Shown: piece after piece, positions 3,004 through 61,638 of the stretch
Numbering within the stretch: the first letter of the stretch is position 1
How the letters are laid out: every line of letters starts with the position of its first letter
Program-made: the position numbers and the translations under genes
NCBI GenBank assembly: GCA_035624185.1
Contig: DASPRZ010000055.1
Coordinates: 1-61,838, forward strand
Reading direction: 5' to 3'
Length of the DNA stretch: 61,838 nt
Origin: Candidatus Acidiferrales bacterium
GTDB taxonomy: Archaea; Halobacteriota; Bog-38; Methanoflorentales; Methanoflorentaceae
Notes under the pieces: model-generated
Databases searched by the model: none
What the model saw: the letters and a program-made list of their open reading frames with translations, nothing else
What the model was told of the DNA's origin: nothing

Positions 3004-4602
3004 TCACCATTCAGTAATCATACGAACCGTTGTAAAAACTGGCCCCCGTAGATCTATTTTCTTATTTTGACTTGTGATGTAGCGCTTTGCGATAGGATCG
3101 ATTCTGATATTGATATCACTGGGAGATCGAGATATCCTTATCCTAACCTCAAGTTCCTTCCTGCCCTCTTTTAAGGCTCTCTCAATTTCATGTGCTGCTT
3201 CTGCAGCGAAAGCAGCAATGTAAGTAATACCGGTTGAAATGCCAGAGGAGATTGTCGCGCCAATGACGTTGTTATCAGTCACGAAAATCTCATTCAAAAA
3301 AGCAGGGCCGCAAAGTTTTGTGTTCTCTTCGGGTTCAATAACTGAAACTTTTACAAACTCACCCAGCATTTCACCCTCCCACGCAACAAACTCAACGGGG
3401 CTCGGATCTTTGCCATGGATCTTGCAGATATCTACTATCGCATTTTGTACTTCTTTCCCCTGATCCGTAAGCGGCTTCAATCTAATTGAGATAAGATTGC
3501 GGATTTCTTCATCACTTAAGGTAAATTTTTCATAAAATTGTGGGTAGACGAGCTCTCTTATATCTCCATAGTCGTAAACGATCATGGCTATCCTTTCAAC
3601 ACCCGGTCCGCAGTTTAATACGGGAACGTCTATGCCGTAGTTTGCGAGTGTTACAGGACTGTACAGTCCAAAGTCAGATACCTCGAGCCATCCGTCACTC
3701 TCACTTGTCCCGAGGTCGAAGTCAGGATGATACGCATATGCTTCATAATGCTTACCTGGAGCATAATATGTGTCTGTTCCTGTTTCAATCCTGTCAAATT
3801 TAAACTCCTCGAACCCAAGTGGATTTAATAGCTCCGTTGTAATCCACTTCCCAACGTCTATGGAAACATCTTCATCCATCACAACGCAGGACGCTGAGTT
3901 ATGAACTTTAAGGTGTGTGGCATCTTCGCGCTGCTCTCTCCGAAAACGAAGACCGATTGAAAAGAGTTTGACGGGGAGTGATTTATAATGTTGCACAGCA
4001 CTTAGCGTGTCAAACCACGCTGACGTCATATGCGATCGGAGGGTGAGATTTGAGGGCAATGGTTTGAGCTTCTTGAATTCTGGAAGCGTTTTTTCAAATA
4101 CCTCAATCGCACGTGCATCGTCAATGTTCAAAACCCTCGCGATTTCTCTTACAAGCTCATCTGCTTCGACCTCACCCGTTTTCAACTTATGGAGCGTCTC
4201 TTGCAGTTCTAGTACTTTCTTCTCCGGTAGTTCGATTCCAAGTGACCGTATTTTGGCTTGCTTCTGAGCGCTCAGTCCCACGTCTGGTCTCGGGAGTGCG
4301 GCGAGGTAGTAGCACCTATCAAGAATAGCGTACCCTGTTGGCCCCCATTGTTTCATCACATCTTCTGCGGGAAAAATCGTCTCATTTATGACTTCATCAA
4401 ACCCCATTTCAAATAGTCGTTCTCTAAGCCTCCCTATAAGGTCATTTACCCTATGGCTTTTCCCGCGCACCCCTTTGGGGAGGATCCTCGACATGTTATA
4501 AGCGCTACCGTCATTTAGTAATTCTCCGCCATATTTCCATGCACTTTCAAAGTCTTTTTGCTCCTTGATCTTCAATAATTCATCTATGGGTATTCTCTTC
4601 AA
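3004..4602 (-). CDS. sepS: O-phosphoserine--tRNA(Cys) ligase (SepRS)
   Basis: Matches remembered SepRS blocks: DRCYYLAALPRPDVGL, LTLRSHMTSAWF, FRREQREDATHL, HNSASCVV, VYSPVTLANYGIDVPVLNCGPGVERIAMI, YPQFY. Confidence 0.93.
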   Translation of the reverse strand: MKRIPIDELLKIKEQKDFESAWKYGGELLNDGSAYNMSRILPKGVRGKSHRVNDLIGRLRERLFEMGFDEVINETIFPAEDVMKQWGPTGYAILDRCYYLAALPRPDVGLSAQKQAKIRSLGIELPEKKVLELQETLHKLKTGEVEADELVREIARVLNIDDARAIEVFEKTLPEFKKLKPLPSNLTLRSHMTSAWFDTLSAVQHYKSLPVKLFSIGLRFRREQREDATHLKVHNSASCVVMDEDVSIDVGKWITTELLNPLGFEEFKFDRIETGTDTYYAPGKHYEAYAYHPDFDLGTSESDGWLEVSDFGLYSPVTLANYGIDVPVLNCGPGVERIAMIVYDYGDIRELVYPQFYEKFTLSDEEIRNLISIRLKPLTDQGKEVQNAIVDICKIHGKDPSPVEFVAWEGEMLGEFVKVSVIEPEENTKLCGPAFLNEIFVTDNNVIGATISSGISTGITYIAAFAAEAAHEIERALKEGRKELEVRIRISRSPSDINIRIDPIAKRYITSQNKKIDLRGPVFTTVRMITEW

Positions 4603-15576: not shown

Positions 15577-15685
15577 AGTTCAATCCTTGTTCTAATGAAT
15601 ACTGCTTGTAAATTCATTGTTACTCGCATCCCCATCGGTAGTGAAAGTTCCAATCCTTGTTCTGGTGGATGCTGCTTTTAAATTC
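15577..15685. repeat. Imperfect tandem duplication (~69-bp period, 2 copies) containing AATCCTTGTTCT
   Basis: AGTTCAATCCTTGTTCTAATGAATACTGCTTGTAAATTC versus AGTTCCAATCCTTGTTCTGGTGGATGCTGCTTTTAAATTC. Confidence 0.6.
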
Positions 15686-58525: not shown

Positions 58526-59111
58526 GTGAAAACACCATCTTCTCCCTATTGCCCATAATGTGGAACGTGGAATCCTCCCAGTGCTCAATTTTGTATGCGC
58601 TGCGGAACGCCATTAGACAGTCCATCTACAGATCCGACAACCATGGATTAACAGTTTCTCGGGCTCACCATATCAAGGAGTAGCGGTTTGGTTTGTGGCG
58701 TTGTTCATTGATAAGCTCATCATCTCTCTCATCAGCTTCTCTCCTGTGTTTGCAGGCGCAGTTCCCCTCATATTTAGTGCGACGGCTAGTGAACGTTCAC
58801 TACCACCCGTATTTTGGGTGCTCCTCGCGTTCAACGTGGTGGTTACGTTTATGTACTTCACGTCTCTCGAGGGGTGATCTGGCCAAACTATTGGTAAAAA
58901 AGCAGTATATATAAGAGTCGTACAGATGGGCAACTGGCATGGGGATGGAGAGCGGGCGTGTATCGGCTACACACAAGCTGCAAGGCGCACCATCCTTCGC
59001 CTCCTCGATGGACAGTTGTGCTACCTCCTTGGAGCACTACTCATCAGGTCACCGGGCAAAAAACAGTGTCTTGGTGATATAGTCGCACAAACAGTTGTTG
59101 TACGCGAATGA
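58526..59111 (+). pseudogene. disrupted zinc-ribbon + RDD-family membrane protein
   Basis: YCP*CGTWNPPSAQFCMRCGTPLD (in-frame TAA), then a frame change, then ...MYFTSLEG*SGQTIGKK...KKQCLGDIVAQTVVV (in-frame TGA at 58875). Confidence 0.65.
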
Positions 59112-59287
59112 TGTACCCACCTCCTATTCGTAATGCATGTTAGTCTAGCGATTTTTAAAGGTAAACATGTTGCGAATCTTCATTCAGATGCAGGGTGATG
59201 CAAATGACGGTAAAAAAAGTTATATACTGTTCATTAATTTTCACCATGCAGTTTGAAGACAAATTAGTACCAAACTAAATATTAATC

Positions 59288-60148
59288 ATGAATAGATATG
59301 TATTCGCAATTTTACTTTTAATAGCAGTAAGTAGGCCAGTGGGCTGGACTACATTTCCTGCATTTTTTTTAATGGGGTCTGTATCTTCAGGTGTTACGAC
59401 AATAACTCCTTTATTCATTTTACAAGTCTTGCTATTATCATTTCCGTTTTGTATTGCTGGTTACGGTTTGAATGATATTTATGATTATGAGTCAGATAAG
59501 CTAAATCCTAGAAAAGGACTTATAGAAGGAATTAAATTAGAACCAGAATATCATTCTTTTGTCAAAAATGTTTCATTTTTTGTTATTTTACTTTTGCTTT
59601 TAACGTCTTTTTTAACTTTAAGCCTTAGTAACATTTTTGGAATGACGTTATTAGGATTTTTAGGTTATTTTTATTCTGCTCCACCTCTACGATTTAAAGA
59701 AAAACCGCCCCTAGATTCTTTCGTTAATGGAATAATATATTTTTTTGCACCTTTTTTACTTGGATTTAGTTTTAGCAGTTCTATTTTTTTTAATGCTGGA
59801 ACGAATGTTTTGATAGGCGTTTGTCTAATGACTGCTATGGTTATGGGATTTCATGCTTATAGCACAATAATGGATTATAGTATCGATAAGAAAATAGGTG
59901 TTAAAACCTTTGCCACTATTTTTGGCAAAAGAAGTGCTTCATTTTTTGCTTTGCTTGTGTCTATTTTAACTTTATTTTTTGCTAACGCTTCGATATTGTT
60001 TAAACCAGTCACGTATTATTTTTTTGGATTTTGTAGTTTATTGTTTGTTATCACATTGGTATTTCCTTCCGAGAAGTTGGCGAGAAGGGGTTTTTATTTG
60101 CTTTGGGCTGGATTTGTTTTTTGGCCGATAATTTGGTTGTTGACTTGA
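59288..60148 (+). CDS. UbiA-family prenyltransferase (lycopene-elongase/LyeJ-like or related)
   Basis: NDIYDYESD (NDxxDxxxD) and a second Asp-rich motif MDYSIDKK, with 8-9 TM segments. The gene is visibly more AT-rich than its neighbours. Confidence 0.8.
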   Translation: MNRYVFAILLLIAVSRPVGWTTFPAFFLMGSVSSGVTTITPLFILQVLLLSFPFCIAGYGLNDIYDYESDKLNPRKGLIEGIKLEPEYHSFVKNVSFFVILLLLLTSFLTLSLSNIFGMTLLGFLGYFYSAPPLRFKEKPPLDSFVNGIIYFFAPFLLGFSFSSSIFFNAGTNVLIGVCLMTAMVMGFHAYSTIMDYSIDKKIGVKTFATIFGKRSASFFALLVSILTLFFANASILFKPVTYYFFGFCSLLFVITLVFPSEKLARRGFYLLWAGFVFWPIIWLLT

Positions 60149-60325
60149 GCGCTTCTTACATTGTGCAAAGCAACAAGAGAAGCCCCCCCACATTGAAATC
60201 TCATCGCGCGCAGTGTGTGACGCCGGTTCACAGAACTGTTTTTTAATATTTTACTATCACGCAAACTTTGTGTAGTGATTAGCGCAGAATTTTGCGCCAC
60301 ATCGAAGGTGAAATTCACATCCGAA

Positions 60326-60378
60326 GAGGCACTGCAAAAAAGGTGATTTAGACGATAGAGGCAAAATCGGTCGTGAAT
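60326..60378. repeat. Left copy of a perfect 53-bp inverted repeat
   Basis: GAGGCACTGCAAAAAAGGTGATTTAGACGATAGAGGCAAAATCGGTCGTGAAT is the exact reverse complement of 61304..61356. Confidence 0.97.
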
Positions 60379-60424
60379 CGTCAGAAATTTTAGATAGTTA
60401 AAAAAGTTAAAATATCTACTTTCA

Positions 60425-61309
60425 TCAGTCAACCTCTTCTGTGTCGCACGGCCTACTACGGCTTGCGACGGCCCTGAGGACGGATGAAAGATGTGCTTTG
60501 GATTTCTTTAATCGATATGAGAGTGTGGCGATGGCTATAAAGGGGAACATGACAGAGATCCCGATTACCGCATACTCAATGTGTCCAATTACGTGGGACA
60601 GAATTCCGTACTTGACAATTCCCATTATTGCGTACGCTATTACAGGAGCTAAGTAATAGAGGTCAACCTCTATTTCGTATGGTTTATTAAGAGAGTATAT
60701 TCGAAATATGAGTGTTGCAGCAAATGCCACAAAAAACCAACCTAAGAAATTGGATATCGGTACGCCAAAATATGCGCCGCCCTCTGGCCAAACCCACGCT
60801 CCAAATCCCACATATATCGGATCTAGAATCAAATCAAGGTTCATAGCCAAAAAACCATCGAGAGTTGACAAAAGAAGCACGTACGCAAAAGAGTGAACAT
60901 TGAGTGTTTTTTTTAAAGAAAAGAAGTTTGCCGGATCTATAATATTCGTTATACTGTAGGCAAGCATGATTATTATTGTCCACAACAACAAAATACTAAA
61001 TGGAACCCGCCCAAACACTTTGTAACCTAGAAATGAAGCAGTATAATAATATCGCTGACCATATATCCACCCATATGTAGTGCCAAGCAGTTCTGAAAGA
61101 CCACCGGCAGCGAATGCGATTCCAAGAAGAAGGAAGACCCTGAATTTCAAAACTGTGGATGCATAAAATATAGTAAAAATGAGCAGTGTAAGGAGTATAT
61201 ACCCAAATTGCTCAGCAAATGTCATTTGAAACTGAAAATGCGTGGGCAAAAAAGCCGCAATTTCGCTAAGGGTTAATACTATGAGGGCTAGAGCAGTTAA
61301 ACCATTCAC
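60425..61309 (-). CDS. carotenoid-biosynthesis-type membrane protein (DUF422/CruF-like)
   Basis: Polytopic 294-aa protein with WVWPEGGAYFGVPISNFLGW. Adjacent to a UbiA prenyltransferase, as in C50-carotenoid loci. The GTG start lies inside the right IR. Confidence 0.6.
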   Translation of the reverse strand: MNGLTALALIVLTLSEIAAFLPTHFQFQMTFAEQFGYILLTLLIFTIFYASTVLKFRVFLLLGIAFAAGGLSELLGTTYGWIYGQRYYYTASFLGYKVFGRVPFSILLLWTIIIMLAYSITNIIDPANFFSLKKTLNVHSFAYVLLLSTLDGFLAMNLDLILDPIYVGFGAWVWPEGGAYFGVPISNFLGWFFVAFAATLIFRIYSLNKPYEIEVDLYYLAPVIAYAIMGIVKYGILSHVIGHIEYAVIGISVMFPFIAIATLSYRLKKSKAHLSSVLRAVASRSRPCDTEEVD

Positions 61310-61356
61310 GACCGATTTTGCCTCTATCGTCTAAATCACCTTTTTTGCAGTGCCTC
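61304..61356. repeat. Right copy of the perfect 53-bp inverted repeat
   Basis: See 60326..60378. Confidence 0.97.
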
Positions 61357-61638
61357 ATTCTGGCGTGATATTATTTAAGTTGTGCCTCAGAATGCTGTCC
61401 GTTGACATTTATGCTGCGCTGTTGTCACAAGAGATGCGTCATTGCCTTCTTTATTGGATATCTTCTGAAGGGGGTTTCGATAACTTTATAAATTCTTTGA
61501 CTCAATTACTCTGGGGGCACGTTCATTCCATTCCAAAATTTGATAGAGTTTTATCTTCGGTTTTTATAGATGCATGGCAAGTAACCAACAGAATGGCAAT
61601 CTTCCCGGTTTAAAGCAGTAGAAGCACAGCGTGATGAC

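Follow-up and report, generated by a model that had tools for sequence, protein, structure and literature searches.

An exact inverted repeat that encloses a single gene in an archaeal genome raises the question of whether the gene is being flipped between two orientations, or whether the repeat came about and is kept in some other way. The repeat considered here lies near one end of a 61,838-nucleotide stretch of DNA (henceforth the window), which is the whole of contig C47 of G000, a 131-contig MAG of 72% completeness. Positions 60326-60378 of the window are the exact reverse complement of positions 61304-61356 (53/53), and if one mismatch is allowed the match grows to 56 nt (60326-60381 and 61301-61356); 919-925 bp separate the two arms. 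No such match arose in any of 100 dinucleotide-preserving shuffles. Within the 2.16-Mb assembly the 53-mer has two copies only, both at this locus, and among exact inverted repeats whose arms lie within 20 kb of each other only one is longer than this pair. A genome-wide scan for comparable repeats recovered a heterogeneous handful and no repeat family. A first-pass annotation of the window had described the exact repeat, had placed the GTG start (61309-61307) and 47 nt of the leader of the enclosed gene inside the right arm, and had the gene converging on a neighboring UbiA-type gene in its present orientation; comparison of the two sequences and the strands of the open reading frames (minus and plus, respectively) agree with it on all these points. 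Its suggestion that the genome be searched for further copies of the 53-mer led to none beyond the two arms.

The features of the locus, from the UbiA gene outward, are the following (coordinates in the window, strand, description):

59288..60148, plus strand: gene for a UbiA-family (LyeJ-like) prenyltransferase (PF01040, Pfam E = 2.2e-17)
60149..60325, plus strand: 3' flank of the UbiA gene and decayed remnant of the spacer between UbiA and the enclosed gene; 60315-60325 are the outer 11 nt, now eroded, of an arm that was originally 65 nt long
60326..60378, plus strand: distal arm, a relic copy of the leader and GTG AAT
60379..60424, minus strand: segment x1, the 3' flank belonging to the CruF-like gene
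60425..61309, minus strand: CruF-like gene, coding for a membrane protein of 294 aa (PF04240 Caroten_synth, Pfam E = 4.5e-28)
61304..61356, minus strand: proximal arm, the 47-nt working 5' leader, with the Shine-Dalgarno-like box AAGGTGAT, followed by codons 1 and 2 of the CruF-like gene (GTG AAT)
61357-61368, minus strand: eroded outer 12 nt of the proximal arm
61369-61379, minus strand: TATA-like box CTTAAATAATA, outside the duplicated segment, presumed to be the present promoter of the CruF-like gene

The arms thus differ in their contexts. The proximal arm sequence is kept as the leader of the gene in all relatives, including those that have no repeat, and the flank at 61357..61379 is 89% conserved between the clades described below. 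The distal arm lies downstream of UbiA and runs in the same direction; its GTG enters a dead-end frame of five codons (GTG AAT CGT CAG AAA TTT TAG). On the strand of the CruF-like gene, x1 carries a run of six Ts ahead of the distal arm that is a likely archaeal termination signal, and a terminator-like hairpin with another run of six Ts is found at 60224-60248, after UbiA and before the distal arm; hence the distal arm is probably situated between two terminators. With respect to function, the enclosed gene's product belongs to the Pfam family PF04240 and only to that: it scores 68.9 bits against the NCBIfam equivalog TIGR03460 (cut-off 154.7) and 43.2 bits against NF041333 (cut-off 300), and so does not reach the equivalog cut-offs for CruF proper (bisanhydrobacterioruberin hydratase). 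The UbiA-family protein likewise falls far under the NCBIfam equivalog cut-offs. As regards the leader itself, the AAGGTGAT box is 25 nt upstream of the GTG (61310-61340, minus strand), which is too distant for normal coupling, and in the window as in G001, G002, G003 and G005 an in-frame ATA follows the box at 7 nt. Translation may accordingly begin elsewhere than at the called start, or the leader may have another role.

The relatives available for comparison are uncultured "Methanomicrobia / Halobacteriota archaeon" MAGs and contigs from peat or soil metagenomes. G003, a closed genome of 2.74 Mb from another species of the genus, has the repeat at the same site with arms of 65 nt (64/65 identical). 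Around these two genomes the repeat-bearing records fall into two main groups: 1) clade A, in which the arms measure 53 nt and are of the window's type (L023, L042, L043, L045, L025 and L028); 2) clade B, with 65-nt arms (L046, L047, L051, L052, L026, L027 and L048). One further record, L050, has arms matching at 63 of 65 positions. In all, the repeat is present in more than 12 independent assemblies from different samples, including MEGAHIT, long-read and JGI assemblies. Its occurrence in these and in a closed relative genome excludes an assembly artefact, which the first-pass annotation had allowed for. The members of a third group, clade C (G001, L024 and L044), are without the distal arm and have an intact proximal leader; they are missing about 210 bp between UbiA and the gene, the distal arm included. 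In L049 the distal arm has suffered a 14-nt deletion and five substitutions. Since clade C is sister to this decayed-arm record in the gene tree, the distal arm was lost secondarily in clade C, with the gene remaining intact. These comparisons indicate that the distal arm, deleted in the one lineage and decaying in the other, is dispensable.

Two side observations concern individual records. In L050 gene calling at the UbiA neighbor (3752-4350) yields no more than fragments of 65 aa and 74 aa, and this neighbor is probably a pseudogene, next to an intact CruF-like gene and 65-nt repeat. The window and L042, independent contigs that both carry this exact CruF-like gene, stop at the same point (61838 in the window), 66 codons into an FtsX/MacB-type permease gene, which hints at strain variation or an assembly-breaking repeat there.

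The orientation of the gene is not the same throughout the genus. In two sister species, represented by the closed genome G002 and by G005, the orthologue is co-directional with, and downstream of, the orthologous UbiA gene, and no inverted repeat was found at the orthologous locus of either; in G002 the locus reads as a same-strand run UbiA-UbiA-gene-UbiA. The UbiA neighbor shows 81% nucleotide identity between the window and G002, the CruF-like orthologue in G002 and G005 shows 71% protein identity, and orthology is supported by a protein tree in which the UbiA-adjacent genes of the window, G001, G002, G003 and G005 form one clade (100/100) with the paralogues apart. In G000, G001, G003 and all metagenome relatives the gene converges on UbiA, and all records checked in which the orthologue is close (88-100% amino-acid identity) display the order permease on the minus strand, gene on the plus strand and UbiA on the minus strand, with one record having an aminotransferase in place of the permease. 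The first-pass annotation had predicted that inversion would place the gene co-directionally behind UbiA, and this very arrangement exists in G002 and G005. It had also called for a comparison of orientation among relatives: the repeat-bearing records that were checked all show one orientation, and it is the repeat-less G002 and G005 that show the opposite one. Its proposal of a very recent inversion or gene-conversion event is right as to the inversion and, as set out below, the gene conversion, and wrong as to the date, since the repeat is older than a radiation across which gene divergence reaches about 10%. The comparison of orthologous loci thus indicates that the inversion of the cassette is a real evolutionary event to which the repeat is tied.

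No outgroup with a UbiA-adjacent orthologue was found outside the genus. The CruF-like paralogues on contig C125 of the same assembly have no adjacent UbiA gene and so give no polarity. Beyond the 3' flank of the G002 gene there is a different UbiA paralogue instead of the permease, and the wider neighborhood is rearranged. The spacer between UbiA and the gene in G002 (L040 7062-7695) contains about 630 bp that neither G003 nor the window possesses; in G005 this DNA is shorter.

What lies outside the two arms identifies the older copy. In a blastn comparison, the distal arm of G003 and the next 77 nt on its outer side align, inverted, with the leader of the G002 gene and the sequence upstream of it (126 nt, 71% identity, E = 4e-10). 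When the distal flank alone is compared with the upstream region of G002 and G005, shuffle tests give p<=0.001-0.003 for G003; the same test on the window's distal flank is weaker, with p ranging from 0.007 to 0.25 across scoring schemes and outgroups. The proximal flank has no homology signal with that region (p 0.2-0.9 by shuffles). As the flank of the UbiA-side arm, unlike the proximal flank, is homologous to the G002/G005 upstream region, we interpret the UbiA-side arm as the ancestral leader, which stayed where it was. From the stop codon to the distal arm there are 42-46 nt, and these align in register with the 3' flank of the gene in G002 and G005 (p 0.015-0.04). Hence the present order is UbiA, old spacer, leader copy, an inverted block made up of 3' flank, gene and leader, and then the permease side. 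Two further resemblances were considered and set aside. A motif common by eye to the proximal flank and the G002 upstream region, AGCATAA-N5-CTGAAC, would have meant that the duplication once included the promoter, and had p 0.3-0.9; a 58% similarity between the two flanks in clade A is not significant either (p 0.3-0.5 by shuffles).

We then compared the arms with their surroundings between the window (clade A) and G003 (clade B). The identities by segment are as follows:

CruF-like gene: 91%
third codon positions of the gene: 82%
3' flank x1: 72%
relic spacer, 60149..60325: 67%
proximal arm: 48/53 (91%)
distal arm: 48/53 (91%)

Within the window the arms are identical at 53/53 positions, and likewise within G003. 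Clades A and B differ at 5 of the 53 arm positions, and at each of these the state of a given genome is present in both of its arms. Further paired changes are seen at one site in L026/L027 and two sites in L049, and outgroup comparison places one on the stem of the non-A lineages, so that paired changes have occurred on at least four branches. This concerted evolution of the arms, while the neighboring non-coding DNA is only 67-72% conserved, points to gene conversion: arms within a genome are more alike than orthologous arms, and the flanks diverge. On the clade A branch four changes are packed into 12 nt of a leader that is conserved elsewhere, a cluster that would fit a single conversion tract in which mutations of the relic were copied into the working leader. 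Three substitutions and one indel have accumulated in clade A over the outermost 12 nt of the 65-nt arm. Where the side of a within-genome arm difference can be judged, it is always the distal arm that has changed, with two exceptions in the proximal arm, namely an extra A in L045 and one substitution in L026/L027.

Taken together, the repeat is probably the scar of an ancient inversion of a single gene, whose arms have since been homogenized by gene conversion, and there is probably no dedicated switch. From parsimony and the relic flank we infer that the co-directional state is ancestral. The ancestor would have had UbiA, then a spacer and then the CruF-like gene behind its leader of about 65 nt, all in one direction, as is still the case in G002 and G005. 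A segment of about 1 kb, consisting of the gene with its leader and about 40-46 nt of its 3' flank, would then have flipped, with 65 nt, from the downstream edge of the old TATA region to codon 2, being duplicated in inverted form at both ends. One copy of the leader would have stayed by UbiA with its old upstream DNA to become the distal arm, and the other would have moved with the gene to become the proximal arm, the gene now being read from a new TATA-like box on the side of the ABC permease. Staggered breaks followed by fill-in and rejoining would yield the product observed; the same product could also result from an inverted duplication followed by a deletion, or from a duplication followed by later recombination. 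Since then the distal arm would have had no evident function of its own, and occasional gene conversion with the constrained proximal arm would keep it nearly identical. Where conversion fails, the distal arm would erode from its outer edge (as in the window), decay (as in L049) or be deleted (as in clade C). It counts against this model that the TATA-like box stands at just the right distance from the arm, which would be a coincidence under pure break-and-join, and that perfect arms in several lineages would also be expected if the repeat had a selected function.

The main alternative is that recombination between the arms, either homologous or by a recombinase encoded elsewhere, still inverts the cassette in populations, the homologous variant assuming a possibly polyploid archaeon. 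The gene would then alternate between reading from its own permease-side promoter and lying downstream of UbiA with the permease-side promoter directed antisense into it. Arms that are perfect or nearly so in several diverged lineages would be expected of such a system, as would the recombination between arms evident from the paired changes on at least four branches; moreover, leader and gene are intact in either orientation, both arrangements are found among species, several tyrosine recombinases are encoded on other contigs of the genome, and a few archaeal invertons are known (bioRxiv 10.1101/2023.03.11.532203). Nevertheless, the cassette is oriented alike in 18 of the 18 distinct repeat-bearing records checked, which come from at least five diverged lineages and from a number of samples and assemblers, and contigs assembled at k=141 as well as long-read contigs pass straight through both arms. 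The near-identical long-read haplotype contigs L051 and L052, from one sample, are collinear, and exact-protein look-ups and metagenome scans retrieved no assembly with the opposite orientation. The Logan contig L048 ends inside both arms, as expected of a k=31 graph at any repeat, and is no evidence of flipping. There is no adjacent recombinase: none was found within 8 kb on either side in the closed genome G003 or at the G002 locus, a search for tyrosine recombinases (PF00589) had no match on contig C47, and one for serine recombinases (PF00239) had none in the 72% complete assembly. The first-pass annotation had noted that no recombinase gene was visible, and this holds for the whole 61.8-kb contig. 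Further, the arm is deleted or decaying in two lineages with an intact gene, the old promoter region by the distal arm is not conserved (67%), and homogenization needs conversion merely above the mutation rate, many orders of magnitude slower than phase variation. Active flipping of this kind is therefore rather unlikely, and the recombination-driven orientation switch that had been proposed finds no support in the absence of a nearby recombinase, in the single orientation of the records and in the loss or decay of one arm. We regard as quite unlikely, too, a switch without a dedicated recombinase, in which host homologous recombination on the 53-65-bp arms would flip what would be a lipid- or carotenoid-modifying gene between expression from its own promoter and a position downstream of UbiA with antisense repression, selection for the flip keeping the arms perfect. 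Rare flips as such are likely, given that the paired changes show the arms to recombine.

A different class of explanation would place the function of the repeat in RNA: the 5' leader and start codon could pair with the complementary 3' UTR in a stem of 53-65 bp, or a read-through RNA from UbiA could interact with the leader, and either variant would act as a control on translation, stability or processing. The arm has its outer end near the expected transcript start from the TATA-like box and covers the start codon with its inner end, and the paired changes resemble compensatory ones. However, of 17 distinct single-arm substitutions no more than six would leave a G-U wobble in the mRNA, and the other 11 disrupt pairing; G-U-compatible transitions are about half, equal to chance. 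There are also three single-arm indels, one of them 14 nt long, and the arm is lost altogether in clade C. The T6 run after the stop of the gene and the hairpin with its T6 run after UbiA both precede the distal arm, and no Rfam family matches at the arms, a scan of the whole window having returned only a CRISPR repeat at 15647-15683. We consider either RNA-level variant very improbable, and gene conversion at the DNA level is the simpler account. Perfect arms around a single gene near a contig end might finally suggest the terminal inverted repeat of a mobile or foldback cassette, or an assembly artefact. Against mobility stand the confinement of the 53-mer to two copies in the genome, outer flanks without a target-site duplication or any common direct repeat, the lack of a transposase, the cargo being the CruF-like gene, a fixed locus with the same flanks in all relatives, and the fact that one arm is the gene's own leader, present in repeat-less relatives; against an artefact stands the recovery of the repeat in the closed genome and in many independent assemblies. 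There is hardly any chance that the repeat is either of these, and the foldback-type mobile cassette that the first-pass annotation had entertained can be rejected.

The closest parallels to an inversion scar come from Drosophila, in which 17 of 29 inversions have inverted duplications of unique sequence at their breakpoints, from 46 bp to 1.9 kb in length (Ranz et al. 2007; PMC1885836). As in those cases, a sequence that was ancestrally unique is now present once at each end of the inverted segment and in inverted orientation, the ancestral flank still adjoins one copy, the orthologues differ in orientation, only one of the two breakpoints is duplicated, the length of about 65 bp is within the reported range, and no repeat family is involved. 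The locus differs from the Drosophila cases in that it belongs to an archaeon and a single gene of about 1 kb, not a chromosomal block, is inverted. Its duplicates are also more alike, at 94-100% compared with about 88% in Drosophila, because they are being homogenized. Classical end joining is not known in archaea of this kind.

In their evolution the arms behave like plastid inverted repeats or the arms of palindromes, which are more alike within than between genomes, have freely diverging flanks and erode at their edges; unlike these they are very short (53-65 bp) and comprise one functional and one relic copy. Invertons such as fimS, hin, the Bacteroides promoters and the archaeal candidates from PhaVa resemble the locus in having inverted arms of comparable length around about 1 kb, and flipping would here likewise uncouple the gene from its promoter. 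Unlike them, this locus has no cognate recombinase, either nearby or dedicated to it, and no second orientation in any assembly; no other locus shares its arms as a recombinase-type site, and one of them is dispensable in relatives.

Read as an inversion scar, the locus is a neat but ordinary piece of genome evolution. It would offer a clean and dated archaeal example of how a single gene is removed from an operon-like arrangement with a short inverted duplicate of its leader left behind, and of gene conversion holding an apparently functionless relic at 94-100% identity as its surroundings decay to about 70%. The relic copy may serve as a reservoir of mutations for the working leader. For inverton finders that operate without reads the locus carries a warning, in that a perfect inverted repeat around a gene need not be a switch. 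Were reads to show both orientations, it would be one of very few archaeal invertible cassettes.

The surroundings of the locus have themselves been remodeled. Positions 58526-59205 of the window contain no long open reading frame and are 84% identical to G003 DNA that carries an intact gene for a zinc-ribbon/RDD membrane protein (L041 15407-15994, Pfam RDD); the window segment looks like a pseudogene of this gene. About 5.4 kb that separate UbiA from the RDD gene in G003 (L041 9864-15311), and that code for a GT2 glycosyltransferase, two methyltransferases and an alpha/beta hydrolase, are absent from the window at 59205-59288. In G002 the neighborhood is rearranged again, with the GT2 block on the other side. 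The UbiA gene (59288-60148) has a GC content of 28-31%, as against 38-45% in its neighbors. UbiA identity is 99% in the comparison of the window with L025 and 83% in that with G003, the corresponding values for the CruF-like gene being 95% and 91%; the divergence of UbiA is thus out of step with that of the adjacent gene, which suggests recombinational exchange or faster evolution.

Other exact inverted pairs in the same genome include the following: 1) a 39-nt pair on the window's own contig (10722-10760 and 16005-16043), 5.2 kb apart, which corresponds to the 5' end of an HMA/copA-type gene and is another inverted 5'-end stub; 2) a 52-nt pair on C107 (9236-9287/10427-10478) that contains GGAGGTGA plus ATG; 3) a 120-nt pair on C33 (11596-11715/15837-15956); 4) a 43-nt pair on C28 (20503-20545/21189-21231) around 643 bp. 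The last of these has a tyrosine recombinase gene (C28:25460-25930) at a distance of about 4 kb, which makes that pair a better inverton candidate than the 53-bp repeat.
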